Source: Candidatus Levybacteria bacterium RIFCSPHIGHO2_01_FULL_38_26 (GTDB lineage: Bacteria; Patescibacteriota; Microgenomatia; Levybacterales; UBA12049). Taken from it: DNA of 64,000 nt. The notes under the pieces are model-generated. The model made no database searches, was not told the DNA's origin, and worked only from the letters and a program-made list of their open reading frames with translations. The first letter of the stretch is position 1; every line of letters begins with the position of its first letter. Shown here in pieces: positions 3,445-32,136 of this stretch. The position numbers and the translations under genes were made by a program. The DNA lies in assembly GCA_001782075.1 (NCBI GenBank), contig MFNO01000013.1:48608-112607 (forward strand), written 5' to 3'.

Positions 3445-4437
3445 ATGAGAGTACTTGTTACTGGTGGGGCTGGGTATATTGGAAGCTTTATGACAAAGCG
3501 GCTTCTTGATTATGGCCACGAGGTCGTGGTTTTTGATAGTTTGGAGAGGGGCTACAGAAATGCGGTTGACACCAGGGCAAAATTTATTCAGGGAGATATT
3601 AAAAATCCTGATTCTCTAGAGATTTTATTTGGAAGCCAAGCAATTGATGCTGTGATGCATTTTGCCGGGTATATTTCAGTTGAGGAATCGACAAAAAATC
3701 CCCAAATGTACCATCTAAATAATACAATTGGTACAGAAAATCTTCTAAAAGCAATGATAGAATTTGGACAAGTTGATAAATTCATTTTTTCCTCAACAGC
3801 TGCAGTATACGGAAATCCAATAAAAACTCCGATTCCGGAAGACCACCCCAAAAATCCAACCAGTCCATACGGAAAAAGCAAACTAGAAGTTGAGGAAATG
3901 CTTCAGATTTTTGGGGAAGAGCAAAGATTAAATTTTGTAAGCCTTCGCTATTTCAACGCTGCGGGAGCAGCTGTTGACGCCTCCATGGGTGAGGCGCATG
4001 AACCAGAGACCCATATCATCCCGTTGGGAATTCTAGCTGCCTTAAAAGGCACAGAATTTAGTTTGTACGGAACAGATTACAATACGCCTGATGGAACTTG
4101 TGTTCGGGATTACATTCATGTGATTGATTTAGTCGAGGCGCATATTTTAGCGCTTAATTATTTAGATAGAGAAAAAGGGGGATTTTTTTACAACGTAGGA
4201 GTAGGAAGAGGATATTCAAATAAGGAAGTAATTGATATGATAAAAAAAGTCTCAGGGAAAGATTTAAAAGTAAAAGTAGAGAATCGAAGAGCTGGAGATC
4301 CGCAGGTCCTAATAGCTGACGCAACTAGGATTCAACGAGAATTGGGTTTTAACCCAAATGTTTCTGATCTTGAAACTATTGTAAAAACTGCATTCTTGTG
4401 GCATCAGAAAAGTTCGAAATACGAGATTGTACTCTAA
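3445..4437 (+). CDS. galE: UDP-glucose 4-epimerase
   Basis: MRVLVTGGAGYIGS Rossmann start, YGKSK catalytic Y-x3-K, and an overall GalE-like 330 aa. Confidence 0.85.
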   Translation: MRVLVTGGAGYIGSFMTKRLLDYGHEVVVFDSLERGYRNAVDTRAKFIQGDIKNPDSLEILFGSQAIDAVMHFAGYISVEESTKNPQMYHLNNTIGTENLLKAMIEFGQVDKFIFSSTAAVYGNPIKTPIPEDHPKNPTSPYGKSKLEVEEMLQIFGEEQRLNFVSLRYFNAAGAAVDASMGEAHEPETHIIPLGILAALKGTEFSLYGTDYNTPDGTCVRDYIHVIDLVEAHILALNYLDREKGGFFYNVGVGRGYSNKEVIDMIKKVSGKDLKVKVENRRAGDPQVLIADATRIQRELGFNPNVSDLETIVKTAFLWHQKSSKYEIVL

Positions 4438-4439
4438 AA

Positions 4440-4973
4440 ATGAAAGGTATTAAACTTTTGCCTTTTGCGCTGGGAATTATTTTATTTTTTTTTATCCCTC
4501 AATCTTCGGTCTTTGCTCAATCGAAATACGTCCTTCCGTATCCATCCGTAATGCCAGGAAGCATTTTTTATAAATTTAATCAAGTCAAAGAGCAAATTTT
4601 GAGATATTGGTATTTTGGCGACTTTGGACAATTTCATTATAATCTTAGACAGTCGGATAAATATTTGGTAGAAGCAAAAACGCTTTTTGATTACAAACAA
4701 TATCTTTTGGGAAATATTGCTTTGGAGAAATCGGATGGGTATTTTGAAGATATTTATCCCAATTTTGTCAATGCCAAAAACAATGGCAAAAACACATCGG
4801 AAAAAGAAATCATGTATAAAGAAGCCGCCAAAAAGCATATAGAGGAACTTAAAAAAGTCAGAAATATTGTTTCATCAATTTTCATTTGGACTCCAGAGAA
4901 CGAGAGTCCAACAACTCTAAAGCTTTGGGAAAGCGTGGATAAGTCTTTGAAGATTAGACAAAAAAGATTATGA
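4440..4973 (+). CDS. Secreted or N-terminally anchored hypothetical protein (DUF5667-like motif)
   Basis: Signal-peptide/TM-like start MKGIKLLPFALGIILFFFIP, then the motif YVLPYPSVMPGSIFYKF, which is shared with the 19915..20484 protein. The start was chosen at the Met just after the galE stop; the track ORF begins at 4398. Confidence 0.55.
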   Translation: MKGIKLLPFALGIILFFFIPQSSVFAQSKYVLPYPSVMPGSIFYKFNQVKEQILRYWYFGDFGQFHYNLRQSDKYLVEAKTLFDYKQYLLGNIALEKSDGYFEDIYPNFVNAKNNGKNTSEKEIMYKEAAKKHIEELKKVRNIVSSIFIWTPENESPTTLKLWESVDKSLKIRQKRL

Positions 4974-6046
4974 GATTAGTTTATGTTTTTATCGCAACCT
5001 TGGTATTGTTTTCCGTTTTTACATACGCCTTTGTTGATAAAAATCTTTCTTATTTAAACAACTTGTACACAGGGCTTTATTTTACTAATAGATTTTTGTT
5101 GGTATCAATCTACACATTTTTGATTTCTATTTTGTTTGGGTGTTTTTATTTCCTTATAAATCATCAGAAAAAAATAAATTTGAAGAAAATAATTTTTTTT
5201 ACAATTACCGTTACTATATTTGCTTATCCGGCGGCACTTGCATTTGATATTTTTAATTACATCACAACTGCAAAAGTTTTGTTTTTGTATCAAGAAAATC
5301 CATATACTATTTACCCAATAGAGTTTAAAGGCGATCCTTATCTTGAATTTACAAGAGCGGCTAATAAAACTGCTCTTTATGGACCGTTTTGGATTATCCT
5401 GACAGGTATTCCTTATTTTTTAGGATTAGGTAATTTTATTGTGATATTGTTTTCATTCAAACTTTTTATTGTAGGATTTTTTGCATCGACAGTGTTTTTA
5501 ATAAACAAAATCGATAAAAACGCGACTTTGTTTTTTGCCCTAAATCCGCTGGTAATTATAGAAACTCTTGTATCGTCGCATAATGATATTGTAATGATAT
5601 TTTTTGCTCTCTTGGGCATTTATTTTCTAAAGTCCAGAAAAGTTTTGTCTTTTTTTTCTCTTCTTGCATCAATTATGATAAAATTCGCGACTGTATTTTT
5701 AATCCCTGTTTTTTTATTAAGTTTATTTACAAAGTTTAGGAGTAAATATAGATACTTTGCAATTTCCATGCTTGTTGTTTTTTTCGTCTCACCTCTTAGG
5801 GAAGAATTATATCCTTGGTATGCTATTTGGTTTATAGCTTTTACAGCTTTTCTTTACAAGAACAAATTCCTGCAAAACCTAGTTTTGGTTTTTTCATTTG
5901 GGCTAATGCTTCGATATATCCCCTACATGGCGAGCGGTAATTATTTTGGCCCAACGCCAATAATTAGAAATATATTGATGTTGTCTCCGGTTTTAGTATT
6001 TTTAATTTACTCGTGGTTTAGAAGTTTGAAAAGAAAAAATGCTTAA
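4970..6046 (+). CDS. Integral membrane protein (about 10 TM), possible GT-C-like glycosyltransferase or polymerase
   Basis: Highly hydrophobic 358 aa with an ATGA overlap to the upstream gene. No soluble domain. Confidence 0.55.
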   Translation: MRLVYVFIATLVLFSVFTYAFVDKNLSYLNNLYTGLYFTNRFLLVSIYTFLISILFGCFYFLINHQKKINLKKIIFFTITVTIFAYPAALAFDIFNYITTAKVLFLYQENPYTIYPIEFKGDPYLEFTRAANKTALYGPFWIILTGIPYFLGLGNFIVILFSFKLFIVGFFASTVFLINKIDKNATLFFALNPLVIIETLVSSHNDIVMIFFALLGIYFLKSRKVLSFFSLLASIMIKFATVFLIPVFLLSLFTKFRSKYRYFAISMLVVFFVSPLREELYPWYAIWFIAFTAFLYKNKFLQNLVLVFSFGLMLRYIPYMASGNYFGPTPIIRNILMLSPVLVFLIYSWFRSLKRKNA

Positions 6047-10700: not shown

Positions 10701-11460
10701 AAAAGATTTCATTTCTGTTGTAATTCCAGCATATAAACAGGAGAAAACTATTGCTCAAAACCTGTCTGTTGTAAAAAAAATCCTGGAAGGAATAGATTGT
10801 GATTTTGAAATAATAGTAGTTGTAGATGGATTAAATGACAAAACTTTTCCAAACGCAAAGAAAATAAAATCTCCTAAAATTAAAGTTTTGGGGTACAAAA
10901 ACAACAGGGGAAAAGGATATGCAGTTAGATACGGAATGGGACGCGCCGTAGGGACGATAGTTTGTTTTATTGATGCTGGAATGGATCTTGATCCAAAGGG
11001 CATAGTTACTCTTCTTGATTATTTTAAATTATATAAAGCAGATATTGTTATTGGAAGCAAAAGGCACACAATGTCGAGGGTTATTTATCCTTGGAGCAGA
11101 AGAATTATCAGCTTTCTATCCCAGATTTTTGTAAAGATTCTTTTTGGTCTGAACGTAAAAGACACGCAGGTAGGTTTGAAGATGTTTAGAAAAGAAGTGG
11201 TTAGAGACGTTCTGCCGCGTCTGCTTGTTAAAAAATTTGCATTCGATATAGAATTTTTGGTCGTAGCCTACGCTTTGGGATACAAAAATATATATGAGGC
11301 GCCAGTTGAAATAAATCACGAATTCAGCGCAAGTATAATTTCCAAGAACATAATGCGGGAGCTTTTTCGAACGCTTTGGGATACTCTAGCAATATTTTAC
11401 AGACTTAATTTAGTAAAATATTATACATCCGAAGATAAAGGAAAATGGAAAAATTACTAA
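10678..11460 (+). CDS. GT2, dolichyl/polyprenyl-phosphate sugar synthase-like (DPM1-like)
   Basis: ISVVIPAYKQEKTI...FEIIVVVDGLNDKT...FIDAGMDLDP. Confidence 0.8.
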   Translation: MQRVRRTKKDFISVVIPAYKQEKTIAQNLSVVKKILEGIDCDFEIIVVVDGLNDKTFPNAKKIKSPKIKVLGYKNNRGKGYAVRYGMGRAVGTIVCFIDAGMDLDPKGIVTLLDYFKLYKADIVIGSKRHTMSRVIYPWSRRIISFLSQIFVKILFGLNVKDTQVGLKMFRKEVVRDVLPRLLVKKFAFDIEFLVVAYALGYKNIYEAPVEINHEFSASIISKNIMRELFRTLWDTLAIFYRLNLVKYYTSEDKGKWKNY

Positions 11461-12764
11461 TAAAATTTCAGTTTGTATTTATTGTCGCAATTATAATTCT
11501 TGGATTTTGGCTCAGGTCTGACAATTTATATACATGGCCAAGATTAGGTTCGACATTTGATGAGTATGCTTGGACATGGCTTGGAGTAAGCTTGATTGAA
11601 GATCAAGCTCCAAGATCATGGTCTCGTCATCCTCAGTACAGCGATCGAGAAGACATAATTTATCAAAAAACAGCTTTTGTCCTGGTAAAACCATATCTTG
11701 AGCATCCGCCCCTTTTTGGATTAGTTGCAGGATCTTACGCACTTCTTACCGGAACAGAAGGGATGTTCGATGTGAGAATCGAGGGTATCCGCGGATTTTC
11801 ATTGGTCTTGGGAGTATTTAGCATTTTTATGGTATATGTATTTGCCAAGGAAGTTTACGGATTAAAGGTCGCCTTAGCTTCCTCATTAATATACGCAACC
11901 GTTCCAACTATTGTAATTGGATCGCGAATTGTCCAGAACGAAAACTTTTTTATCCCATTTTTCTTGCTATCTCTATTTTTAGTCGCCAGATACATTAAAT
12001 CAGGAAAATCATGGCTGCGTAATGTTTCTGCGATCATTTGCGGTCTTCTTACTTTGGCTAAAGTTCCATGGATTGCGGCAGGAATTTCAATTTTTCTTAT
12101 TTTTTTATATCTCAGAAGATATTCTGATGCGGGAAAATTTATTGCTATTGTTGTTCCTATTTTTCTTTTGTTTTTTGTTTATGGATTTTATTTTGATTCA
12201 AAATTATTTCTGAGTCTTTGGCAGATGCAACTGACTAGGTACGACCTCGCCTTCAACAGCGTTTTTGCTCTTTTTACATCACCATATTTGGTGGATAGAT
12301 TTATGATAGACGGATGGATTTATTTTGGTTGGTTTGCATTCTTTTTAATTATGGCAAGAGAACTAAAGAAGAATTTTTTGATAGTAATACCGCTTCTTAC
12401 ATATTTTGCAATATTTGTTTTTGCCATTCCAAATGAGCCAAGTCATGGGTGGTATAGATATCCGTTTTACCCTTTTTTAGTTTTGAGTATTGTCTTATTT
12501 CTTAAAGAATACTTTGGGAAAAACTACTTACTGACATTTTTCTTCCTGGTTTTTGTAGGGCTTTCTTTGCTTCAGCTGTCGTGGGTGCCATCATTCGGAT
12601 TTTCTTTTTTAGTTTTTAGAATATTTTTACTTTTTTTTGGATTAACAATGCTTCCATATTTTATCCCCAGGACCAACAGGCTTTCACATTTTTCATCTCA
12701 TGCATCACTTTTTTTACTGATTTTACTCAACATTTGGTCTGTTTTTAATTATAATGAGCAGTAA
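11445..12764 (+). CDS. GT-C membrane glycosyltransferase, ArnT/PMT-like (GT39/GT83 type)
   Basis: 13-14 TM with a first-loop DE motif (LGSTFDEYAWTW). Confidence 0.6.
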   Translation: MEKLLIKFQFVFIVAIIILGFWLRSDNLYTWPRLGSTFDEYAWTWLGVSLIEDQAPRSWSRHPQYSDREDIIYQKTAFVLVKPYLEHPPLFGLVAGSYALLTGTEGMFDVRIEGIRGFSLVLGVFSIFMVYVFAKEVYGLKVALASSLIYATVPTIVIGSRIVQNENFFIPFFLLSLFLVARYIKSGKSWLRNVSAIICGLLTLAKVPWIAAGISIFLIFLYLRRYSDAGKFIAIVVPIFLLFFVYGFYFDSKLFLSLWQMQLTRYDLAFNSVFALFTSPYLVDRFMIDGWIYFGWFAFFLIMARELKKNFLIVIPLLTYFAIFVFAIPNEPSHGWYRYPFYPFLVLSIVLFLKEYFGKNYLLTFFFLVFVGLSLLQLSWVPSFGFSFLVFRIFLLFFGLTMLPYFIPRTNRLSHFSSHASLFLLILLNIWSVFNYNEQ

Positions 12765-12765
12765 T

Positions 12766-13887
12766 ATGAGGATCCTGATTTTTAATTGGAGAGACATAAA
12801 AAATCCAACAAGCGGCGGAGCAGAAATTCTTACTCATGAATTGGCGAGGAGATGGGTTGAGAGGGGGAACAAAGTAGTTATGTTTTGTTCTTTTTACAAA
12901 AACGCAAAGCAGAAAGAGTCAGTAGATGGAGTAGAGATTATTAGAGAGGGAAATCCAGACGCAAGACATCTTTGGAATTCTGTACATTTTAAGGCGTTTA
13001 TTAATTATAAAAGAAAATTCAAGGGAAACTTCGACGTTGTCATCGATGAGATTCACGGGCTGCCGTTTTTTACTCCGCTTTATGTAAAGGAGAAAAAGAT
13101 TGCGTTAATATGCGAGGTGGCAGGAGGACTTTGGTACAAAATGTATGGTTCAATTTTTGGCTCTATTGGGAGGCTTGTTGAAATAATTTATCTTAAATTA
13201 TTTTATCAACAGCTGCATTTTCTTACTATCTCAAATTCAACAAAACATGATCTTATCTCAAATGGCATAAAAGAAAGCTATATACATGTAATTCCGATGG
13301 GAGTAAAATTGCCAAATTATAAGAGAAGTATTCTTAAAGAAAAAGCACCAACTTTATTGGTTGTTGGAAGATTATCCAAACCCAAAGGAATAGAAGACGC
13401 GATAAAAGTTTTAGAATATGTTTTAAAATTCATGCCTTCAGCAAGACTTTGGATTGTGGGACGAGGAGAAGCGGAGTACACCAATTATCTAAAAAAAATA
13501 ACTAGTGATAAGGGGCTCGAGAATAAAGTCGTGTTTTATGGCTATGTTTCTGAAGACGAAAAATTCAGTCTAATGTCTAGAGCCCACTTATTGCTTGTCC
13601 CGTCAACTAAAGAAGGATTTGGTTTGACCATCCCGGAAGCTGGTTTTGCGGGCACACTTTCTATTGTATATAAAGTCAGCGGTTTGAGAGATATAGTAGA
13701 GGAGGGTGTAAATGGAATTATTGTTAATAAAGATCCTCTTTCGATGGGCAAAGCAGTAGTTGAAATTTTAAGTGATAAGAAAAAATACGCTGAAATTAGG
13801 AAAAATGCAATTGAGTTTTCTAAAAGATTCGATTATGAAGCTTCTGGAAGTGAAACTCTTAATTTGATTGCGAAGTATTCACTTTAG
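12766..13887 (+). CDS. GT4 glycosyltransferase
   Basis: EGFGLTIPEAGFAGTLSIV. The start was taken at MRILIF, just after the upstream stop. Confidence 0.85.
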   Translation: MRILIFNWRDIKNPTSGGAEILTHELARRWVERGNKVVMFCSFYKNAKQKESVDGVEIIREGNPDARHLWNSVHFKAFINYKRKFKGNFDVVIDEIHGLPFFTPLYVKEKKIALICEVAGGLWYKMYGSIFGSIGRLVEIIYLKLFYQQLHFLTISNSTKHDLISNGIKESYIHVIPMGVKLPNYKRSILKEKAPTLLVVGRLSKPKGIEDAIKVLEYVLKFMPSARLWIVGRGEAEYTNYLKKITSDKGLENKVVFYGYVSEDEKFSLMSRAHLLLVPSTKEGFGLTIPEAGFAGTLSIVYKVSGLRDIVEEGVNGIIVNKDPLSMGKAVVEILSDKKKYAEIRKNAIEFSKRFDYEASGSETLNLIAKYSL

Positions 13888-15958
13888 GCAGATGGAATAC
13901 TTCCATGGTCTCGACATTGCCGGGGCATGATTCTTTTGGGTCTAAAACGATATTTATGTACCGCGCATATTCTGCTGCAAATGGATATGAGATGGTGTTT
14001 CCAACAGGTTGTCTTTCAAGAATGGGAATTGGCAGGTCCTGCGGAAGAACGTGTGGTGTTTTGTACCAGTTTTCTCCATCGACAGAAATATTAAAATAAA
14101 TTTGATCTGCCGATTTACAATTGTTTGTGGAAAAAGACCATTGAATTTTTGAAATATAAGTTGGCTTTTTCAAGTCGATGAGTATCCCATTATCGCTATT
14201 CTCATAATTTAGATCGCTAACTGTCTCTTCGACATCAAATCCCTTTTTTGTGTTAGCCAGATCGTTTTTCCAAATGTTAAGAATGCTTACGTTATCAACC
14301 TTGATTTGATAAATTGGTTTCAAATAACGATAGTAGTATCTACTGCTGTAGTATGACGTGTTTAATTCTGATCCATAGTTTAATCCTATTACATATTCTC
14401 CTTTTTTGATATATCCGCTGCGCAAACTATTGGTATATTTTAGATCGCTTCTCACAAAAAGTTTCGGCAAATTAGGCATGAGCTCTTGCGCAAGAACCAA
14501 TGTAGATCCGTTTTGCGCGTGTTCGTTTATCCAATGAATGCCTTGACGGTACGCATTTCCAAAACTGTTTCCCCAGTAAGGAAAATTTTTATCCTTCGCC
14601 CCCTCAAGACCTCCTATTAGTGGATTAAAATAGACGTTTTGATTGGGGTGGATGGAGATTAACTTGAGGGTAATTGGGATAAACATTAGAACAATCAATA
14701 TTTGTAGCACAAGGGTTAATAATCTTTCCTTCGATTGCTTCATTGTCCTATTGTTAAATTGCTTTAGTCTTTCAACAATGAAAAAATATAACAATTTAAC
14801 AATGTATCCTGCTCCAATACCTGACAATATCGCCATAGCCGGGATAAATTCCATTATTTGTCTTACTCCTCCGTATATACCGGCGTTTGGCACTGTAACT
14901 CTTGCGATGGGAATTAAAAACCAGAGCAGGACCAAAAAAGCTGTTTTTTGTTTCTCGCTTCTTCCTTTTGAAAGGGTATATAAAACACCAAATAAAGTAA
15001 GAAAAAGTGTAACTAAAGGAGTTGTATAAATAATCCATTGTATGGCAAAAGTATTGAAACCAAAGAAAGTAAAAGAAGGATCAAAGTTGGGATTAATGCC
15101 AATTGTTTTATAATAATCAACAATCTTAAAAAAATTATTTATTGGCTCAGCCCATAGATATGGCCAGCTTCCCCAAAAAATAGCGATAGCGATTAGCGGG
15201 AAAAAAAATATAGATGGAATGAGCCAGTTAATCTCTTTAAATGATTTTGTTTTTTGCTTAAGATATACAATTAACCAGGGAAGGATAATAAATGGTGAAA
15301 AAAGGATATTAAACTTTGTTCCCCACGCGAAGCCGAAAAAAACTGCGGAAAGGATGAGGAAGAGATTTTTTTTACGAGTTATGCCTTCATACAGAAAAAT
15401 TATCATTAGGCTATAAAATGAGGCCTGCGGAATATCTTTAAGATTAAAGCGTGATTCACCCAAAAAGAGCGGATAAAGAACCAGTGATAAAATTGTAACG
15501 AATGCAACAAATATTCCGTAATGTTTTCTCGTCCACCAGAAAAGAGCAGCCACAAGAAGGGAAGCAACAGCAATGATATAAACATGATACGAATCAATAT
15601 CATTTATTAATCTCATCTCTTGAAACAGAACAAAGTTGAAAACAGAGGAAAAAATATCCGAAAGTGGGGGATGTCCTCCATCTTTTTCTAAAAAATAAGA
15701 GGCGCCGTACCCGTCGATTTGATACAGACTGCGTTTGGGAATTGATTCTTTGGGTTGACTTGGAGAAAATAAAAGAGTGTCTTCTTCTTGATAGTAATCT
15801 ACATAGTCGGGCAGCTTCTCATATGTTTGTTCGCCTGTGAGTATGTACCTTAAATACGCCTGTCCCCGGGGCAGATGGTTAATTGTGTCCCAATCGGTTC
15901 CATAATGAGGAAGCAGTATTAATTCAAAGAGGAAAAAGGAGAGAAAGACTACAAGCAT
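13859..15958 (-). CDS. GT-C membrane glycosyltransferase (ArnT/PMT-like) with an extra C-terminal discoidin/F5-8-type-C-like domain
   Basis: N-terminus LPHYGTDWDTINHLPRGQAYLRY. It is paralogous to 18203..19918 along the whole TM core. A unique C-terminal tail of about 130 aa reads ...ISKIQWSF..NCKSADQIYFNISVDGENWYKT, resembling a galactose-binding-like fold. Confidence 0.7.
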   Translation of the reverse strand: MLVVFLSFFLFELILLPHYGTDWDTINHLPRGQAYLRYILTGEQTYEKLPDYVDYYQEEDTLLFSPSQPKESIPKRSLYQIDGYGASYFLEKDGGHPPLSDIFSSVFNFVLFQEMRLINDIDSYHVYIIAVASLLVAALFWWTRKHYGIFVAFVTILSLVLYPLFLGESRFNLKDIPQASFYSLMIIFLYEGITRKKNLFLILSAVFFGFAWGTKFNILFSPFIILPWLIVYLKQKTKSFKEINWLIPSIFFFPLIAIAIFWGSWPYLWAEPINNFFKIVDYYKTIGINPNFDPSFTFFGFNTFAIQWIIYTTPLVTLFLTLFGVLYTLSKGRSEKQKTAFLVLLWFLIPIARVTVPNAGIYGGVRQIMEFIPAMAILSGIGAGYIVKLLYFFIVERLKQFNNRTMKQSKERLLTLVLQILIVLMFIPITLKLISIHPNQNVYFNPLIGGLEGAKDKNFPYWGNSFGNAYRQGIHWINEHAQNGSTLVLAQELMPNLPKLFVRSDLKYTNSLRSGYIKKGEYVIGLNYGSELNTSYYSSRYYYRYLKPIYQIKVDNVSILNIWKNDLANTKKGFDVEETVSDLNYENSDNGILIDLKKPTYISKIQWSFSTNNCKSADQIYFNISVDGENWYKTPHVLPQDLPIPILERQPVGNTISYPFAAEYARYINIVLDPKESCPGNVETMEVFHLPKVNTSQSN

Positions 15959-16001
15959 GGTGTTGATTATAGGATAATTTTGCTATAATTACAAAAAGAA
16001 T

Positions 16002-16937
16002 ATGAATATTTTGATAACAGGAGGCAATGGATTTATCGGAGCAAAAATTGTTGAAAGATTGGAATCTCTTGGGCATAGGCAATTTTTGTTACTCCGAAAA
16101 AACAGCAACAGGACTAGATTGTTGCCATTTGTTGATAAGATAAAGATTTTTGAAGCAGATTTAATACAAGCGGAGGTTGTTTCAGAGATTGTTAGAAAGG
16201 TAAATCCTGAAGTTATTATTCATCTGGCAGGTTATGGGGTTTATTCTTATCATGATATGACGGCTGAAAATATGAAGTTGATGGTTGATTCAAATATTTA
16301 CGGAACCATAAATCTTTTGAATGCGGCTAAGAATTCGAATTGCAAAATATTCGTTAATACCGGAAGTTGCTTTGAATATGGCAGCAGCGATTTACCTTTT
16401 AAAGAAGAAGATATGCTTAATCCTTTAAATATTTATGGGGCAACAAAGGCATCCGCCACGTTATATTCTAAAGTGTTATCTAAAAAAAGCAGTTTTGCCC
16501 TAGTAACGCTTCGCCCATTTACCGTTTATGGTCCCGGAGAGGATAAAAGAAGATTTATATCAACTGTTATAAAGCAGTGCTTGGAGGGAAAAAATCCTAC
16601 GCTTACAAGAGAGCGCATCGTGAGAGATTATATTTATATAGAAGATGTTGTGGATGCGTATCAAGTGGTAATTTCAAAGGCAGAATTGCTTTCGGGTCAA
16701 ATTATTAATATATCTACAGGGAAAGGGACAGCTTTGGAAGATGTTGTGAAAATGATAATGCGGCTAACAAACGCAAAAGTGGTGCCAAGTATTGGTTCTT
16801 TTCCTACTCGGGAGGGCGAAGTGTTGACTTTGGTTGGTGATCCGAAAAAGGCGGAAAAGTTATTGAACTGGAAAGCTAGGTATTCATTGGAAAAAGGACT
16901 CGCTAAGACCGTGCTTTCGGCAAGGGAAAACGATTGA
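16002..16937 (+). CDS. NAD-dependent nucleotide-sugar epimerase/dehydratase (extended SDR)
   Basis: MNILITGGNGFIGAKI, YGATK (Y-x3-K). Confidence 0.8.
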   Translation: MNILITGGNGFIGAKIVERLESLGHRQFLLLRKNSNRTRLLPFVDKIKIFEADLIQAEVVSEIVRKVNPEVIIHLAGYGVYSYHDMTAENMKLMVDSNIYGTINLLNAAKNSNCKIFVNTGSCFEYGSSDLPFKEEDMLNPLNIYGATKASATLYSKVLSKKSSFALVTLRPFTVYGPGEDKRRFISTVIKQCLEGKNPTLTRERIVRDYIYIEDVVDAYQVVISKAELLSGQIINISTGKGTALEDVVKMIMRLTNAKVVPSIGSFPTREGEVLTLVGDPKKAEKLLNWKARYSLEKGLAKTVLSAREND

Positions 16938-18144
16938 AAATTTTTACGTACTCCTTTGTACAGTATTGATAGGATAGATATTTTTTGGCAAGAGAAGCGC
17001 TAGCTTTTACCATAGATGAGATATTATCGCCAGCTCTAATAATTTTGATAATTCCTAGGGCAATATTCTGCGCGTCGCTATCATTTACCCTGTATCCGTT
17101 CTTTCCGTCTATCACATATTTTTTACTTACTGCAAGTTTTGTAGCAACAATAGGCAGTCCAGAAGCGATTGCTTCAAAAAGAGCTACAGTATGCGATTCC
17201 AGATTGCCGTATTTATCCTTTATCGAGGCGGATGCATAGATATCGGCAAGGGCATAATATTTTGGCAGATCAATATGATTAACTTTACCCAGGAAAAGAA
17301 TTTTATCTTCTATTTTTAGGATTTTTGCCAGTTGCGTCAATGATTTTTTTTCTGTTCCGTCCCCAATTATGACAAGCTTTGCCGACTTTTCTTTTTTGCC
17401 TACAATAGACATAGCCTTAATTAGGTATGCAAAGCCTTTTTTTTCCACAAGTCTTCCAACAGTTAGAATAATCCGATCAGATGGAGAAAGATTCAGCTTA
17501 TTCCTCATGCTGTTCCTCTGAGTCCTAATATTTGTAAAATTATTTACATTAACTCCATATGGTATTTCTGCAAATTTTTTACTGTTTACTCCCAACATCG
17601 ATAGCTCATCAAGGTAGCGCAGGCTATTTGAGACAATTACTTTTGCCTGGGAGGCGGCAATTTTGGTCATCCATCGAAACAAAAAATTATTTTTTCCAAG
17701 ATATACGTCCGATCCCGGAACAGTAACAACAAGAGGAATGTTTGTAATCTTTGAAACAAGGGCTGCTATAAATCCATTGGGAATAATCCAATGGGCAGAA
17801 ATCACTTGAATCTTTTCTTTTCGCACTAGAAAAAGAAGAGAAAAGAAGGAAAATAGAAGCATAAATGGAGCTAGAAAGAAAACGCTTGGCTTAAAACGCT
17901 GGTCTCCTATTAGAGTTCTTGAGTATCCTAAAGTATGAAATCTTTTTGAAAAAATGTATTTATATAGTTTAACCTTAAGATTTCTAACAGTATTCTGTTT
18001 TAAAGAAAACAATTTATCATAGGGAGCAAGAACAAAAACATTTTGTCCCTGCTGCGCAAGACCTTTACAAAAATCCTGCATAAAGGGAGCTACAGGGTCT
18101 CCTGGAAACCTTGGATAGGTATGCGTAAAAACACAAATGTTCAT
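16903..18144 (-). CDS. GT4 glycosyltransferase
   Basis: GT-B architecture, with a C-terminus E..ALFEAIASGLPIVAT. Confidence 0.8.
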   Translation of the reverse strand: MNICVFTHTYPRFPGDPVAPFMQDFCKGLAQQGQNVFVLAPYDKLFSLKQNTVRNLKVKLYKYIFSKRFHTLGYSRTLIGDQRFKPSVFFLAPFMLLFSFFSLLFLVRKEKIQVISAHWIIPNGFIAALVSKITNIPLVVTVPGSDVYLGKNNFLFRWMTKIAASQAKVIVSNSLRYLDELSMLGVNSKKFAEIPYGVNVNNFTNIRTQRNSMRNKLNLSPSDRIILTVGRLVEKKGFAYLIKAMSIVGKKEKSAKLVIIGDGTEKKSLTQLAKILKIEDKILFLGKVNHIDLPKYYALADIYASASIKDKYGNLESHTVALFEAIASGLPIVATKLAVSKKYVIDGKNGYRVNDSDAQNIALGIIKIIRAGDNISSMVKASASLAKKYLSYQYCTKEYVKIFNRFPLPKARS

Positions 18145-18181
18145 TGGCGCTTTTTGTATTTTACATTATTCACGCATGGGA

Positions 18182-18190
18182 TGCTATAAT
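18182..18190 (+). promoter_or_regulatory. Extended -10 promoter element TGCTATAAT upstream of 18203
   Basis: TGnTATAAT was read at 18182-18190. It lies 12 nt before the ATG in the divergent intergenic region. Confidence 0.35.
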
Positions 18191-18202
18191 TAATAGATCT
18201 GC

Positions 18203-19918
18203 ATGAGTAAGTCCAATTTCTTTTTTGGAGTTATTATTTTTCTGTTATTTTTGATTCAGGGCATTTTTTTGTTGCCGGATTATGGAATGAATTGGGATGA
18301 GCCCGCCCATTATCTGCGTGGACAGGCATATTTGCGATTCTTTTTAACCGGGGAGAAAGACTATAAAGAGTTTCCTCAGCTGAAATCACATCTACCAAAA
18401 AGCGAATTTGTCGATCCTCCCCAGTACAAATGGATCGTTGGGGACGACAGCGTTTTTCGAAGAAGCATATTTCAATACGACAGAGGAGAGGGAGAAAAAT
18501 TTACTTATTTTTACTATCTTAAATACGACAAAGGTCATCCGCCTTTAAATGGAATTCTTGCTTCTTTATCAAACTATATTTTTTATCAAAGATTAGGGGT
18601 TTTTAAAGATATAGAAAGTTATCATTTATTCACTATTTTTCTAAGTGCAATATTGGCGGCATCCATTTTCATATTCACCTCTCGCTTTTATGGTAAATTC
18701 GCAGGTCTAGTTGCGGTTTTGTCTCTTTCTTTGTTTCCGCTTTTTTTTGCAGAATCGCATTTTAATATTAAAGATCCAGTTGAATCCAGCTTTTATTCAC
18801 TAGCTCTTTTTGCTTTTTATATTGGCGTTGTCAAAGGTAAATGGAAATGGATTATTATCTCGGGAGTTTTTGCCGGTTTTGCTCTGGGGACAAAGTTTAA
18901 TATTATATTTGCCTCCTTTTCTCTTGCTGTATGGCTTGCCATTTATCATTGGAGGTCTATAAAGAGAGTGTCCTGGCCATTTTCAAAATCGCAAACAGCA
19001 AGTTTTGTTCTGTATCCGTTTATAGCTTTATCTATCCTTTATATTTCATGGCCCTACCTGTGGCAAGATTCCAAAAATATCATGCATATCTTTTCATACT
19101 ACAGAGAAATTGGGATTGTTCCTTATCAGCCTCCTGGTTATTATTTTTTTGGATTCAATACATATGCTGTTTGGTGGTTACTTTTTAGTACGCCTCTTGT
19201 TATATTGTTCTATTGTTTTTTTGGTATTTTCTATGTTTTAAAATACGGATTATCAGAAAAAAATAAGCTGGCAATATTTATTTTTTTATGGCTTCTTGTT
19301 CCTGTTGTTCGGGTAAGCTTTTCTACTACCGGAATCTACGGCGGTTTACGACAAATAATGGAATTTATTCCTGCTATGGCGATATTGTCAGGCATTGGCG
19401 CAAACTATCTAGTTCAAAGTTTAAAATTCAAAATTTTTAACTTTAAACCGCAGCTTTTAACTTTTATTTTTAAACTTTTAATTATTGCATCATTTATCCC
19501 CATAACTATAAAACTGATCTCCATCCACCCCAATCAAAACGTCTACTTTAATCCATTTATAGGAGGTCTTAAAGGGGCTTATGAAAGAAATTTTCCTGAT
19601 TGGGGAGTGAGTTTGGGAAGTGTATATCAGCAGGGTACTGACTGGCTCAATCAAAATGCAGAACGTGGTGCAACCCTAGCACTTGTTCGGGGCTTACATT
19701 CAAATATTCCCCGCACCAAACTCCGACAAGATATAAACTTTGATAACAGATACTACTCGGGAGAGCAAAGAGGGGGAGAATATATAATGGAAGTTATTGA
19801 TTATAACTGGGTTATTCATGTTCCGCGGGAGAAAAGAAAATATCTTGAAAACCTAGAGTCCGTATACAGCGTAAAAGTTGATGAAGTTTCGATTCTTAAG
19901 ATTTGGAAGAATGATTAG
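18203..19918 (+). CDS. GT-C membrane glycosyltransferase (ArnT/PMT-like), paralog of 13859..15958
   Basis: LPDYGMNWDEPAHYLRGQAYLRF (DE motif). The C-terminal segment ISIHPNQNVYFNP...VSILKIWKND is almost colinear with the minus-strand paralog. Confidence 0.7.
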   Translation: MSKSNFFFGVIIFLLFLIQGIFLLPDYGMNWDEPAHYLRGQAYLRFFLTGEKDYKEFPQLKSHLPKSEFVDPPQYKWIVGDDSVFRRSIFQYDRGEGEKFTYFYYLKYDKGHPPLNGILASLSNYIFYQRLGVFKDIESYHLFTIFLSAILAASIFIFTSRFYGKFAGLVAVLSLSLFPLFFAESHFNIKDPVESSFYSLALFAFYIGVVKGKWKWIIISGVFAGFALGTKFNIIFASFSLAVWLAIYHWRSIKRVSWPFSKSQTASFVLYPFIALSILYISWPYLWQDSKNIMHIFSYYREIGIVPYQPPGYYFFGFNTYAVWWLLFSTPLVILFYCFFGIFYVLKYGLSEKNKLAIFIFLWLLVPVVRVSFSTTGIYGGLRQIMEFIPAMAILSGIGANYLVQSLKFKIFNFKPQLLTFIFKLLIIASFIPITIKLISIHPNQNVYFNPFIGGLKGAYERNFPDWGVSLGSVYQQGTDWLNQNAERGATLALVRGLHSNIPRTKLRQDINFDNRYYSGEQRGGEYIMEVIDYNWVIHVPREKRKYLENLESVYSVKVDEVSILKIWKND

Positions 19919-20484
19919 AGCTTAGCCTTGTATTCTTCTATTGTCTGCCAGTTTCTTTTTGAAAAATCTGAGACTGTCAGAAAAGTTTTTGCCTGTTCTT
20001 TTGAAACTCTTTTGGCAAGGGAGGAGAGCACTTCTTGATGTTTTAGGGACGCGGTGTGAAGTTTTTTAGAGAAGTCATCAGTAAGGCTTATCTTTTCAAC
20101 TTCTTTTGAGATAAGCGTATAATTATGCTCTGCTTTTAGGGCTGTCTCCATTGCGAGATCAACTTTTCCTTTGTCAACAAGCATCGCTGATGCCAAGATG
20201 CCCTTGTCTGTTTGAAGAAGATAAAAATCTATTTTTTTATTAGGGTCAGATATCAACGCTGCAGATATTTTGTCTCTAAACACCTTCAACTTATAGAGCG
20301 GGTGATCAGGAAGTATTCCTGGATAAGCTAGGTTATATTCAATAATCGCAGCAGATGTTGCTTGTTTTACTTCAAGCGTATCTTGATTTCCCGTTTCTTT
20401 AGCGTGTGAGACGCTAGATGAGAGAAAAATACTTAAAATAAAAACAAAGAACAATAAAACTCTTTTCATTTTGTCTGTTAACAA
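19915..20484 (-). CDS. Secreted hypothetical protein (DUF5667-like motif)
   Basis: Signal peptide MKRVLLFFVFILSIFLSSSVSHA, then the motif YNLAYPGILPDHPLYKLK, which is shared with 4440..4973. Confidence 0.55.
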   Translation of the reverse strand: MLTDKMKRVLLFFVFILSIFLSSSVSHAKETGNQDTLEVKQATSAAIIEYNLAYPGILPDHPLYKLKVFRDKISAALISDPNKKIDFYLLQTDKGILASAMLVDKGKVDLAMETALKAEHNYTLISKEVEKISLTDDFSKKLHTASLKHQEVLSSLAKRVSKEQAKTFLTVSDFSKRNWQTIEEYKAKL

Positions 20485-23574: not shown

Positions 23575-24831
23575 TTATTTTTCTCTTGTGTAAAGGTAAT
23601 AGAAATACGAAAAAGGGCTTCCTTGTTCAAACTCAATAACCTCACCTTTTTTTATCTTATCCAATACAAACGCTCTATAATTTTGCAAGCCTACAGTTCT
23701 TATTGCAAGAAACTTATTTATCCCAATATACGCATAGTAAATAGCAAAGACAATTATAAAAAGAGTTATAAATTTATTTTTAACTTCAAGTAATTTATAG
23801 ATGATAAAAGACGCAATCATCACCCCAAGAAATCTATTTGTAGAAAAGTAATAGTTTGTAACTTCTCCGCTATACGTAGAGAGAACCAACCATGGGATTA
23901 GGAAATAAAGAAAAACCAAAGAGACCATAACAAAGCCCTTTTTTGTAGGAATATTTAAAAAATGAATTACAAAAAAAACAGGAAGAACAAACCAGCCTAA
24001 AATCCTCATAATCGGATTTATGGTAAATGCTTCTATTTGAATAAAAGCGCTGGTGAATAATTGTAGAACTCGAGTGAGATGTAATCCGTGAAACGATGAT
24101 CCTATATAGCTTATCTGATTTAAGGCGTATTTGTTTGTATTGAGCAAGTTCACAATTATTATCGGAGATAAGCTTACAGCTAAAATTGGGATAGATAAGA
24201 GAATATGCAGAAATGTTTTTTTTGTTTTTGGAAAAAAGGGAAGCGTGAATAGAATGATAAGAGGCAGGAAAACAGCTACGGTCAAATGGATATGAAACGC
24301 GAGAGCAACGACTATAGCAAGGTATAAGATATGTTTTTCACTTCCCAAAAGAATTTTGTACAAAAAATAGAACGCAAGCAGCGAAATAAGAGGAATGAAA
24401 TTTACCTCCCATTGAACTCTATCGAATTCAATAGCGGAGTAGGAAACTGTGTTTATAAAAACAGCAATCAATGCTATTGGCATTGTGAATAGTTTTTTTA
24501 CAACAAAAAAAAGCGTAAAGAATCCGATTATACTGGTAAAACCGGCGAACAAACCTGCAGCTATTGGATCCAAATTTGTGAAGAAGTAAAAAATAGAGAT
24601 TGCGTAGTAATACAGTGGTCCTACAAAAAATCCACTGCTGAGTTTATTTTCTGGTCCAATGAGGGGAAAATTATGATCAACGATTATTCTTTTTGCCGCC
24701 CACGCACTATCAACCTGGTCATAGAGAAAGCTGCTTTTTGTCTCAATTTCATAAAATCTCAAAAATATATGGAGAACTAAAAGGGCAAGGAGGATAATAT
24801 ATTTCTTATCCTTAAATAGAAATGGTGTCAT
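23575..24831 (-). CDS. GT-C-like polytopic membrane protein (PMT_2/ArnT-like)
   Basis: About 12 TM, with an early loop LYDQVDSAWAAKRII. Confidence 0.55.
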   Translation of the reverse strand: MTPFLFKDKKYIILLALLVLHIFLRFYEIETKSSFLYDQVDSAWAAKRIIVDHNFPLIGPENKLSSGFFVGPLYYYAISIFYFFTNLDPIAAGLFAGFTSIIGFFTLFFVVKKLFTMPIALIAVFINTVSYSAIEFDRVQWEVNFIPLISLLAFYFLYKILLGSEKHILYLAIVVALAFHIHLTVAVFLPLIILFTLPFFPKTKKTFLHILLSIPILAVSLSPIIIVNLLNTNKYALNQISYIGSSFHGLHLTRVLQLFTSAFIQIEAFTINPIMRILGWFVLPVFFVIHFLNIPTKKGFVMVSLVFLYFLIPWLVLSTYSGEVTNYYFSTNRFLGVMIASFIIYKLLEVKNKFITLFIIVFAIYYAYIGINKFLAIRTVGLQNYRAFVLDKIKKGEVIEFEQGSPFSYFYYLYTREK

Positions 24832-29646: not shown

Positions 29647-30691
29647 AAGCAGAGTCGTTCAAAACGATATTAGAAAAATAGCGTTGCGGATTAAAAAAGA
29701 CGCAAAAATTTTAAGCGGAAAGACAGTTTTAATTACTGGCGGTTCTGGCTTTTTGGGTAAATATTTCCTGTATACAATTTGGTATTTAAATAAAAATTTA
29801 TTCTCAAAACCAGCTAGAGTAGTTTCATTGGATAATTATATTACCGGAACAAAAGATAATCCTTTTGTGAATGATGAGAATTTTAAATTCATTAAACACG
29901 ATGTAAGAGAACCTTTTTACTTGAAAGATCGTGTTGATTATATAATTCATGCGGCCGGCATTGCGTCGCCGGTTTTTTATATGAAGTATCCACTTGAGAC
30001 ACTTGAAGTTGCAACATTTGGTACCAAGTATATGCTGGAATTTGCAAAATCCAAAAAAGTAAAAAGTTTTTTGTTTTTTAGCTCCAGCGAAGTTTATGGA
30101 GATCCTGATCCTAATTTTGTTCCAACACCGGAGAATTATCCAGGAAACGTTTCTTGTACGGGGCCAAGAGCTTGTTATGATGAATCGAAAAGACTTGGCG
30201 AGACTTTGTGTACGATTTATCACAGCTTATACAAACTTCCTGCTAAAATCGTTCGTCCCTTCAATGTTTATGGTCCTGGCATGAAAACCAATGATTATAG
30301 AGTAGTCCCTCGATTTTTAACCAGTGCTTTGAAGAAAGAGCCATTGCCCGTTCATGCCGGGGGAAATCAAACAAGAACCTTTTGTTATATCTCAGATGCT
30401 ATAACAGCATTTTTCAAAGTATTGCTTTCAGACAAGAATGGAGAAGTTTACAATGTCGGTAACGATGAAAATGAAATGAATATGATGACTCTTGCACAAA
30501 CTGTTTCAGGTTTATTTAGGGGTAAACTCCAAGTAAAATCAGTTGATTATCCCTTGACTTATCCTCAAGGAGACCCGAGGAGACGAGCGCCAGATCTTAC
30601 AAAGATAAGGACAGAACTTGGATATAAGCCAATGGTTAATCTGAAAACTGGATTAGAAAGAACACTGAGATGGTACAAAGAAAAGATTTAA
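29639..30691 (+). CDS. Extended-SDR nucleotide-sugar dehydratase/reductase (UXS/ArnA-like)
   Basis: VLITGGSGFLGKYF, YDESKRLGE, RPFNVYGP. Confidence 0.75.
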   Translation: MIKSRVVQNDIRKIALRIKKDAKILSGKTVLITGGSGFLGKYFLYTIWYLNKNLFSKPARVVSLDNYITGTKDNPFVNDENFKFIKHDVREPFYLKDRVDYIIHAAGIASPVFYMKYPLETLEVATFGTKYMLEFAKSKKVKSFLFFSSSEVYGDPDPNFVPTPENYPGNVSCTGPRACYDESKRLGETLCTIYHSLYKLPAKIVRPFNVYGPGMKTNDYRVVPRFLTSALKKEPLPVHAGGNQTRTFCYISDAITAFFKVLLSDKNGEVYNVGNDENEMNMMTLAQTVSGLFRGKLQVKSVDYPLTYPQGDPRRRAPDLTKIRTELGYKPMVNLKTGLERTLRWYKEKI

Positions 30692-32136
30692 TTTTTATCT
30701 TACTTCTTTTGGTTTTGGCATATGTTGCATGGCAACAAATTCCACAGCTTGTGATTAGGGGCGACGGATTTGTTTATATGGTTTCCTCAACGCTAAATGA
30801 GTTTTTTGGCAGAGATTACTTTTACACAGGATTTGAGTTGTCAGCTGCCGTTCTGGGTTTAATACTTCCAGCATTATACAAAACCAATATCAGTTATTAT
30901 TTTTACACCTCGCTTTTTGTCATGATGATTATCAATGTGTTTTTTTATATTCTTCTTCGATTCATTACAAAAAACAAGGTTGTATCCTTTTTTGGAGCTC
31001 TAATATTTGCCGTGAATTATTTTGGTAATTTTGATATGTATTCTCAGCATTGTTATTGCTTTTTTACGGAGCGCATAGTGCCTGTGATTTTTATACTTCC
31101 CGCTTTTTTATTCCTCCATTTATTTTTGGAAAAACAAAAGATCAAGTATTATTTTATTTCTATTCTCTTATATTTTCTAGGGATAGGCATGGGACATTTT
31201 GTAGTATTATTTACCGCGCCGTTTTTTTTGTACCCAATTTTTTGGTATCTTTTTAAAAACAAAAAAATTATTGAGCGAACAAAAGGGATACTGATTGGCG
31301 CACCCTATTTAATGACAAGTGGATTTTTTGTTTTAATTCAGAGGGTACATGAGGCAGGGCTTGAGAAAAAAGTAGGGCTTTTAGAATTTTTACTCAATCC
31401 CCAGGCTACACAATATCCTGAAAAAATAGTAAGGCAGTTAGTTTATTGGTCCGAGTACGAACCGATAATTTTAAACTTTGGCAGAGCATCGCTTCATAGC
31501 TATATTGATGTACAAAGCGCCGTATCAATCACTCCTTATGTTGTGGGAATTTATATACTTGCGGCTCTTATTTTGTTTATCAAGTTAACTCATATGAGAG
31601 CACTTCTTCTTACAACTATTTTTGGAACGCTTTCAATTTTTTATTTAAATGCCTGGTTTGGTCAGTATGATGTACTAAATCAACCGGGAGCAAACAGATA
31701 TCTTTATCTTCCAACAATTCTTCTTGTTATTTTCTGGACGCTGTTTTTGTGGATGCTCTGGAAGAGCAAGTATAGGATTATAAAAATATTGGCAATTGTA
31801 TTAGTTGCCATTTATTATCTTCTGAATTGGATAATAATTTCCGACATGTTTAGAGATGTGCTTTTTTGGGACAGATCAACAAAAGTAACCTATCAATATA
31901 TGAATTCAATTAGAGAACGTTTACCCAAGGGCACCCTAGTCGTTGCTCCGTACCCCGAGGTCGGAGTATATGAGTCAATGTTTTTTACAGAACAAATAGG
32001 AAATGGAGAGGTTGAGTTTTTGGCAGAGGATCATCCCTATAGGGATTGGGTACAGGCTGCAAGTGCTTCAGCCCATGTTGTCAGGCTTAAATATGATAAG
32101 GAATGCGACTGCATTAAAGAGATAAAAATAAAATAA
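30670..32136 (+). CDS. Polytopic membrane protein (GT-C-like candidate)
   Basis: About 12 TM, 488 aa. Confidence 0.5.
   Translation: MVQRKDLIFILLLLVLAYVAWQQIPQLVIRGDGFVYMVSSTLNEFFGRDYFYTGFELSAAVLGLILPALYKTNISYYFYTSLFVMMIINVFFYILLRFITKNKVVSFFGALIFAVNYFGNFDMYSQHCYCFFTERIVPVIFILPAFLFLHLFLEKQKIKYYFISILLYFLGIGMGHFVVLFTAPFFLYPIFWYLFKNKKIIERTKGILIGAPYLMTSGFFVLIQRVHEAGLEKKVGLLEFLLNPQATQYPEKIVRQLVYWSEYEPIILNFGRASLHSYIDVQSAVSITPYVVGIYILAALILFIKLTHMRALLLTTIFGTLSIFYLNAWFGQYDVLNQPGANRYLYLPTILLVIFWTLFLWMLWKSKYRIIKILAIVLVAIYYLLNWIIISDMFRDVLFWDRSTKVTYQYMNSIRERLPKGTLVVAPYPEVGVYESMFFTEQIGNGEVEFLAEDHPYRDWVQAASASAHVVRLKYDKECDCIKEIKIK

Follow-up and report, generated by a model that had tools for sequence, protein, structure and literature searches.

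A near-identical tract in an inverted pair of GT-C glycosyltransferase genes of a Levybacteria glycan locus: a probable footprint of ectopic gene conversion

The genome of Candidatus Levybacteria bacterium RIFCSPHIGHO2_01_FULL_38_26 (assembly GCA_001782075.1, contig MFNO01000013.1) contains two genes for membrane glycosyltransferases of the GT-C type, here called A and B, that lie head to head with a sugar epimerase gene and a further glycosyltransferase gene between them. We analysed 64,000 nucleotides (nt) around this pair (positions 48,608 to 112,607 of the contig); the whole of this stretch is referred to as the window, and positions are counted from its first letter. The exact A and B proteins are deposited as OGH14309.1 and OGH14312.1, respectively, from a Candidatus Levybacteria metagenome-assembled genome (MAG). 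Our subject is a short tract of DNA that the two genes have in common almost letter for letter, and what it indicates about recombination between them.

The paralogues and their shared tract

Calling of open reading frames (ORFs) and alignment confirm the view of a first-pass annotation that A and B are colinear paralogues in inverted orientation, and the sequence motifs it listed are present in both: the loop YG.(D/N)WD, GHPPL, ISIHPNQNVYFNP, and the tail VSIL(N/K)IWKND. Its description of the paralogues as 'near-identical' does not fit: they share just 45–47% of their amino acids (47% over the 548 aligned codons) and 55% of their nucleotides in a codon-aware alignment. Among the 259 codons that specify the same amino acid in both genes, 131 are identical, against 115 expected from the codon usage of the window, and the synonymous sites of the pair are thus essentially saturated.

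The core of the tract, ATCTCCATCCACCCCAATCAAAACGTCTA[T/C]TTTAATCCA, is identical in A and B at 38 of 39 positions, or at 51 of 54 when extended (Table 1). The single-difference stretch of the first-pass annotation is therefore real, although the coordinates given for it were shifted by a few bases and the range on the plus strand was too long. The core includes the exact 29-mer ATCTCCATCCACCCCAATCAAAACGTCTA at 14631..14659 (minus strand) and 19517..19545 (plus strand), of which the window holds no further copy even with up to three mismatches (0 expected by chance). In B, the tract corresponds to residues 439–451 (1-based), i.e. the end of helix 432–440 and the loop after the last membrane helix according to DSSP applied to an AlphaFold (AF2) model, in which the C-terminal alpha/beta domain begins just after the tract. 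The family-wide consensus at this place is KLISIHPNENVYFNPLIGGL; the tract alters at most one amino acid, and its practical consequence for the window itself is small. Assembly artefact was considered as a source of the tract and rejected: the 29–39 nt are identical in nine independently assembled loci of the same population (L064–L072), and the flanks differ.

The unusual feature of the tract is its choice of codons. Where the two proteins share an amino acid, 12 of 13 core codons are identical, compared with 89 of 191 in the rest of the gene and with a codon identity of about 50% for every other gene pair at the same motif; the border is marked by five synonymous differences in the eight codons directly upstream. 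Seven core codons are the rarer, C-ending members of their synonymous sets (ATC, at a fraction of 0.15; TCC, 0.09; CCC, 0.15; GTC, 0.10; CAC and AAC, about 0.3) in a window with a G+C content of 35%. When the protein alignment of A and B was kept fixed and synonymous codons were resampled from the window's own usage in a Monte-Carlo procedure, at least 38 identities in 39 positions arose anywhere in the gene with P = 0.0018, and a run of at least 29 nt with P = 0.007. The first-pass remark that the tract is more conserved than the surrounding synonymous sites accordingly stands. An empirical null distribution was obtained from 82 family genes from 60 loci, which yield 3,253 between-genome pairs below 55% amino acid identity: 38 of 39 was reached by one of these pairs and a 29-nt run by four. 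The whole-gene alignment that had been proposed as a check for patchy tracts reveals this one exceptional tract. A second patch, ‘patch 1’, at 19328..19402 (GIYGG.RQIMEFIPAMAILSGIGA; GIYGG..IPAMAILSGIGA), was rejected as a further conversion tract, being ordinary: 14 of its 23 codons are identical, which unrelated pairs match (13/24, 13/21).

One relative, represented by two assemblies (L001 and L002), has gene order and orientations exactly as in the window (GT4+, A−, epimerase+, GT4−, B+, DUF5667−, epimerase+). Orthologues of A (P0118, which is the L001 gene, P0098, and P0127) are 62–69% identical to it, and the orthologue of B (P0002, again from L001) is 66–67% identical. In the direct comparison with L001, A reaches 65% and B 66–67%; because A and B are less alike than each is to its L001 orthologue, the duplication and the inverted layout must long pre-date these lineages. 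The duplication is thus ancient, and the earlier suggestion that it was recent is refuted. Two other loci (L003 and L004) carry two paralogues in direct orientation with other genes in between. The B-type gene of L003 (9261..11036, P0007) is 54% identical to B of the window in the N-domain and 81–82% in the C-terminal domain (for B of L001, 68% and 64%), so that N- and C-domains differ in their histories between lineages, which suggests that whole C-domains are exchanged.

The tract departs from this pattern of descent. Orthologues encode the motif with other codons (B of L001: ATC GAT ATT CAC CCA CAT CAG AAT GTG; B of L003: ATT TCT ATC CAT CCC AAT CAG AAC GCT), and the identity of the tract is therefore not family-wide conservation of nucleotides. 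The pair in L001, of the same architecture, is without the tract, its longest exact A/B run being 15 nt. Within the tract, A and B of the window are mutual nearest neighbours among 81 other family genes (38 identities versus at most 32 of 39 positions; 51 versus at most 44 of 54); elsewhere in the gene, the closest match of each is its L001 orthologue. Grouping of paralogues in a tract and of orthologues in its flanks is the classical signature of ectopic gene conversion. We consider the stretch of 39–54 nt to be the probable footprint (at roughly 80%) of short-tract ectopic, i.e. non-allelic, gene conversion, a process that appears to be recurrent in the family.

Table 1. Positions in the window of the GT-C paralogues, the two copies of the tract, and the adjoining genes
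Feature	Position	Strand	Evidence or remark
ORF A, long-form GT-C (PMT_2) membrane glycosyltransferase, 699 aa	13859..15958	−	ORF call; PF13231, 29.0 bits (cut-off 26.1)
ORF B, short-form GT-C (PMT_2) membrane glycosyltransferase, 571 aa	18203..19918	+	ORF call; PF13231, 59.4 bits (cut-off 26.1)
Tract copy in A, core of 39 nt encoding ISIHPNQNVYFNP	14621..14659	−	Extended 54-nt form, 14606..14659
Tract copy in B, core of 39 nt	19517..19555	+	Extended 54-nt form, 19517..19570
C-terminal extension of A only, ~133 aa, possible carbohydrate-binding beta-sandwich	13859..14260	−	Sub-threshold F5/8 type C-like matches
NAD-dependent sugar epimerase/dehydratase, between A and B	16002..16937	+	PF01370, 8e-45
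GT4 glycosyltransferase, 413 aa, between A and B, divergent from B	16903..18144	−	PF00534, 9e-35
GT4 glycosyltransferase, 377 aa, convergent with A	12754..13887	+	Overlaps 3' end of A
DUF5667 protein, convergent with B	19915..20484	−	PF18915, 7e-11

Larger tracts in relatives

Tracts of this kind, and larger ones, are found within other genomes of the family. In the Microgenomates MAG L012, in which the paralogues are directly oriented and 45% identical in amino acids, an exact tract of 112 nt with sharp borders starts at K-IHPNENVYFN. This tract is AT-rich, on which ground GC-biased conversion is not supported as the cause of the C-ending codons in the window. Two contigs from the Hainich aquifer, L076 and L077, are neighbours in a single genome, with ends that overlap by 55 nt, and, when joined, have the window's exact architecture with its inverted layout. 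Their B-type and A-type genes share an exact tract of 260 nt (309 nt at 96%) that has its end inside IHPNENVY and is flanked by sequence of 45–65% identity; since the B gene has A-type sequence in its middle segment, the transfer went from A to B.

A third case is L030 (Levybacteria RIFCSPLOWO2_02_FULL_37_18, MFPD01000012.1), a 5.8-kb contig made up of the 5' part of A (minus strand), the epimerase gene, the GT4 gene, and the 5' part of B (plus strand). Its ends, 4..177 and 5660..5834, form an inverted repeat of at least 175 nt that is 98.3% identical and lies within A and B. Since both ends are inside the repeat, the contig is exactly the potentially invertible interval, the assembly having broken at both repeats. 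A run of 33 nt is shared at patch 1 in L080. An apparent shared run of 49 nt in L009 was discarded, as two adjacent ORFs overlap there physically and no repeat exists. The tandem family genes of L034 (9956..11965 and 13249..14580), which are 75% identical in amino acids and share an exact run of 141 nt, with the second copy truncated, stem from a younger duplication or else from a conversion of very large extent.

Exact runs of at least 29 nt are present in 4 of 29 within-genome pairs, a count that leaves out the window pair and one 75%-identical pair, versus 4 of 3,253 between-genome pairs (Fisher P = 3e-7). All tracts fall inside codons ~300–480, the most conserved part of the gene, and those of the relatives overlap either the IHPN(E/Q)NVY motif or the conserved zone that directly precedes it; they differ in sequence, length, and position from the tract of the window, which is the smallest of the series. 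Because large, unambiguous tracts occur at the same site or zone in relatives, the prior for conversion in the window is raised.

Conversion would begin with homologous pairing of A and B at the most conserved motif of the family, the junction of the membrane domain and the C-terminal domain; pairing would lead to heteroduplex, and its repair in favour of one of the two sequences would wipe out differences at synonymous sites, which elsewhere are saturated. The machinery is presumably pairing of the RecA type followed by mismatch repair. Recombination would presumably find an anchor only in codons ~300–480, where DNA identity is high enough, and homogenisation would be tolerated there, as both copies encode the same protein sequence. 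Recombination is limited by the minimal efficient processing segment (MEPS), and diverged flanks abort branch migration, which may be why tract ends cluster in conserved blocks.

Several points weigh against conversion in the window. The tract is short, its stand-alone P is only about 0.002, and it was picked post hoc from a scan of 64 kb. Runs of 25–30 nt occur at the same motif between genes of different genomes (30 nt in L012/L062, 28 nt in L010/L050), which means that protein constraint alone can occasionally come close. The databases hold no genome above 66% amino acid identity, and hence no pre-conversion state is on view, and RecA-mediated pairing at 55% overall identity is expected to be very inefficient. 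These points favour coincidence, in which protein constraint on the most conserved motif (the tract does encode the family-wide consensus), together with codon usage, would have given 12 of 13 identical codons and no DNA would have been transferred. We regard coincidence as unlikely, although it is the best of the rival explanations: the shared codons are mostly rare C-ending ones, only 1 of 3,253 between-genome pairs attains 38 of 39, in the tract each of the two genes is by far the closest match of the other, and unambiguous conversion tracts of 90–260 nt are found at the same site or zone in relatives.

If gene conversion is accepted, its timing can be bracketed. We argue that it post-dates the split from the L001 lineage and is old on a population timescale: the event is not very recent, as the copies have come to differ at one synonymous site and every population sampled has the tract in fixed form, A always reading TAT..CTA and B always TAC..TTT. 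The first-pass proposal of ongoing gene conversion is thus upheld as to conversion, by the phylogenetic incongruence and the within-genome excess, and not as to 'ongoing', the tract being monomorphic in every population sample. The direction in the window was perhaps from B to A; the weak hint that B was the donor is a Q at HPN(E/Q) in A, in contrast to E in its two nearest orthologues, B-type genes often having Q. As a diagnostic of A-type versus B-type genes, this residue was rejected, being polymorphic in both groups.

Orientation of the interval and a chimeric relative

The first-pass annotation had further proposed that the inverted paralogues serve as substrates for inversion of the block at 16002..18144, and had suggested a search of strain variants for both orientations. 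Fourteen contigs from at least eight independent assemblies, 99.65–100% identical to the window, carry intact A and/or B, and all show the parental arrangement; assemblies report majority forms only, and it is to these that the result applies. The two chimeric proteins predicted for an inversion (566 and 704 aa) are absent from a collection of 15 billion proteins, in which the parental A is found on 11 contigs and B on seven. The orientation in L001 is the same as in the window across about 35% protein divergence. Recombinational inversion in this genome is not supported.

These results bear directly on a second rival explanation, an active invertible switch (shufflon-like or phase-variable) that would flip 14660..19516, swap the C-terminal domains of A and B, and vary a surface glycan. 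Its attraction lies in the position of the inverted repeats, inside two paralogous genes at a domain boundary, in a relative that carries the predicted chimera of B-type N-domain and A-type C-domain with the predicted neighbours in two assemblies (see below), and in the L030 contig, which ends on both sides in the A/B inverted repeat as would be expected for an unresolved or bistable segment. The parental arrangement of 14 of 14 contigs and the absence of both chimeric proteins nevertheless make such a switch improbable, as do several features of the DNA itself. No ORF of at least 150 aa across the 64-kb window has a Pfam match to a recombinase, invertase, integrase, or transposase. The repeat is not conserved, for L001 has the identical architecture without the tract and the other tracts differ in position and length. 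The 29-nt exact match, finally, is at the lower limit for homologous recombination, MEPS being about 23–27 bp in Escherichia coli.

Still less probable is a functional element at the nucleotide level (an RNA structure, a protein-binding site, or a translational pause signal) kept in both genes. The run of C-ending, non-preferred codons common to both copies is unusual, and a pause of translation is conceivable at this place, directly behind the last membrane helix, but orthologues, including that of L001, encode the same motif with other codons, and the tracts of L012, AT-rich as noted, and of Hainich differ in sequence. Only identity within a genome is thus conserved, not a sequence element. 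Recent duplication, with the tract as the best-preserved part of young copies, has nothing in its favour beyond the tract itself and is refuted by paralogues at 47% amino acid and 55% nucleotide identity with saturated synonymous sites, orthologues at 61–69% in several genomes, and a syntenic A/B pair in L001, Hainich, and L030.

The relative with the predicted chimera calls for separate treatment. Among 183 family proteins, P0004 is the only strongly discordant one, a chimera of B-type N-domain and A-type C-domain. Compared with the L001 pair, its gene is B-type (about 80–90% nucleotide identity) to about codon 325–335 and A-type (75–93%) from about codon 480; A-type and B-type sites are interleaved in the mosaic zone between these points, and the A-type extension is present. 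A breakpoint at residues 465–468 was rejected, for it captured only the last B-type patch, and the closer L001 pair places the main switch earlier. On contig L073, the P0004 gene is flanked by B's upstream 413-aa GT4 gene (70% identical to that of the window) and by A's downstream GT4 gene of the 377-aa type, which is exactly what one reciprocal crossover between inverted paralogues predicts. The gene recurs up to residue 383, and hence beyond the switch from B-type to A-type, in L075, which was assembled independently and agrees with 1 mismatch over 1,967 nt; the L075 contig ends about where the Hainich tract begins. The reciprocal product, with an A-type N-domain and a B-type C-domain, was not found with the predicted-chimera query, in a metagenome scan, or with the A-type N-terminus of L075 as query (best match 80%).

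We judge the odds to be slightly better than even that the chimera of L073 and L075 is a true inversion. An assembly misjoin has a considerable chance, since an assembler that takes the wrong exit from a long inverted repeat produces the same contig as a true inversion. Both alike imply extensive exchange between A and B in this lineage. Tracts as long as those of relatives (175–260 nt) would make reciprocal crossover between inverted copies feasible, and such a crossover would invert the interval and swap the C-terminal domains, as the L073 chimera suggests. The broader first-pass idea that inverted paralogues are substrates for mosaic shuffling therefore finds comparative support in P0004 and in the large tracts of relatives with inverted layout, and none as regards inversion in the genome studied here.

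Taken together, Levybacteria and their relatives invite a speculative reading, to which we assign a low likelihood: the inverted GT-C pair would be a recombination module in which conversion keeps a near-identical 'landing pad' and an occasional crossover inverts the epimerase/GT4 interval and swaps C-domains. If this were so, new glycosyltransferase specificities and surface-glycan variants would arise without a dedicated recombinase, the landing pad would lie where the catalytic core in the membrane meets the C-terminal (acceptor-recognition) domain, and the chimera of L073/L075 would be one of the products, whether fixed or coexisting.

The glycosyltransferase family, its locus, and its significance

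Both A and B pass the gathering score of PF13231 (PMT_2). Neither reaches the cut-off of 22.7 bits for PMT (PF02366; A 18.9, B 21.8 bits), and neither has a MIR match; by these two marks they fall outside the GT39 protein O-mannosyltransferases, and the 'family 39' names of relatives at NCBI are automatic annotations. A search of PDB sequences with the family profile gave no match at E ≤ 0.01, and placement of the family by structure comes from a fold search. With the AF2 model of B (predicted local distance difference test score, pLDDT, 85.4; predicted template-modelling score, pTM, 0.89), Foldseek returned ArnT (5f15/5ezm), STT3, AglB, PglB, AftA, ALG9, and Pmt4 at E values of 2e-7 to 5e-5, probability 1.0, template-modelling scores of 0.37–0.50 (about 0.47–0.50 for the best matches), and 10–15% sequence identity. 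The model thus places the family among the GT-C class A membrane glycosyltransferases, distant from anything characterised. With that class (ArnT, PglB/STT3/AglB, PMT, AftA), A and B have in common the fold (as modelled for B), the PMT_2 match, and an invariant W-D in the first external loop; they differ from the solved structures in their 10–15% identity, sub-threshold PMT score, and lack of MIR. In an alignment of 18 sequences, Y27, W31, and D32 are invariant (YG.NWDE in B, YGTDWDT in A), and the acidic residue of this loop is probably catalytic. The fold suggests a polyprenyl-phosphate-linked sugar as donor. The C-terminal extension of A (~133 aa), which other long-form members also carry, scores below threshold for both PF22633 (20.2 vs 27.8 bits) and PF00754 (17.6 vs 28.2 bits). 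All properly named relatives of the family are Microgenomates. Many MAGs with this Microgenomates-specific GT-C family (e.g. loci L006, L009, and L010) bear the TPA_asm title 'uncultured Gammaproteobacteria bacterium', which looks like a systematic taxonomic mislabel.

The genes around the pair are likewise conserved. The epimerase gene between the paralogues keeps its position and strand in L001, L030, L075, and L077; the 413-aa GT4 gene is a neighbour of B in L001, L030, L073, L075, and L076; the 377-aa GT4 gene adjoins an A-type C-terminus in L001, L077, and L073; and the DUF5667 gene adjoins a B-type C-terminus in L001, L004, and L076, a conserved convergent adjacency which suggests that DUF5667 and the short-form GT-C are functionally linked. 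A second DUF5667 gene lies at 4398..4973 (plus strand). Convergent 3' overlaps join A to the 377-aa GT4 gene (29 nt, 13859..13887) and the epimerase gene to the 413-aa GT4 gene (35 nt, 16903..16937); the Hainich assembly is broken exactly at the latter overlap, where L076 and L077 have their common 55-nt end.

The entire window is a glycan-biosynthesis supercluster. It contains at least nine NAD-dependent epimerase/dehydratases, at least 12 GT2/GT4 glycosyltransferases, two DegT aminotransferases, many S-adenosylmethionine-dependent (SAM) methyltransferases, a sugar C-methyltransferase, a UDP-glucose dehydrogenase, a flippase, YfhO/PTPS-related membrane proteins, a CDP-alcohol phosphatidyltransferase, and a phosphoenolpyruvate (PEP)-utilising enzyme, and is free of mobile-element genes. 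Three more GT-C/PMT_2-type genes (11445..12764, plus; 23575..24831, minus; 36504..38726, plus) are more distant, being missed by the A/B family profile at E ≤ 1e-30, and have no copy of the tract. Large ORFs of 439–1118 aa without any Pfam match lie at 59934..63290, 52117..53811, 54742..56427, and 30670..32136 (plus strand) and at 50743..52062 (minus strand).

Among known systems, the closest parallel to gene conversion between A and B is the ectopic conversion and concerted evolution reported for bacterial paralogues such as tufA and tufB of Salmonella and E. coli. They, too, are two functional inverted paralogues on one chromosome, homogenised by non-reciprocal exchange, in which a reciprocal crossover would invert the interval. 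The tuf copies, however, are kept at about 99% identity along their entire length, whereas A and B are 55% identical, conversion in their family is confined to tracts of 39–260 nt, and the rest of the genes has diverged freely, including gain or loss of a C-terminal domain. Segmental gene conversion for surface variation is known from Neisseria pilE/pilS, Borrelia vlsE, and Treponema tprK. These systems resemble A and B in having short conversion tracts between related sequences at a surface-related locus, but they draw unidirectionally on silent donor cassettes and create diversity in variable regions; A and B are both intact, and their tract lies in the most conserved region, where it homogenises and changes at most one amino acid. 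Inversion switches include shufflons, invertible hsdS or pilV segments, and the invertible promoters of Bacteroides polysaccharide loci. Here, as in A and B, inverted repeats lie in or beside paralogous genes, and by inverting the segment the cell would exchange C-terminal domains for specificity or switch between glycan genes. Such switches need a dedicated site-specific recombinase, conserved short repeats, and show both orientations in the population, and none of these three was found for A and B.

The mechanism proposed here is ordinary ectopic gene conversion, i.e. textbook biology, in a new setting; literature searches found no report of gene conversion in the candidate phyla radiation (CPR)/Patescibacteria or in GT-C glycosyltransferases. 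Interest is modest for the window itself and somewhat greater for the pattern across the family and for the chimera that may stem from an inversion. In comparative terms, copies are only about 45% identical, yet roughly one in six within-genome pairs has a conversion tract, which invariably falls in the one conserved zone. The pattern urges caution with paralogue trees and with MAG assemblies of these glycan loci, in which contigs break or may misjoin at tracts, and it singles out the motif IHPN(E/Q)NVYFNP.IGGL as a junction under functional constraint. For the biology of these ultra-small episymbiotic bacteria, it offers a hypothesis of how surface glycans may diversify, one that can be tested with existing reads.

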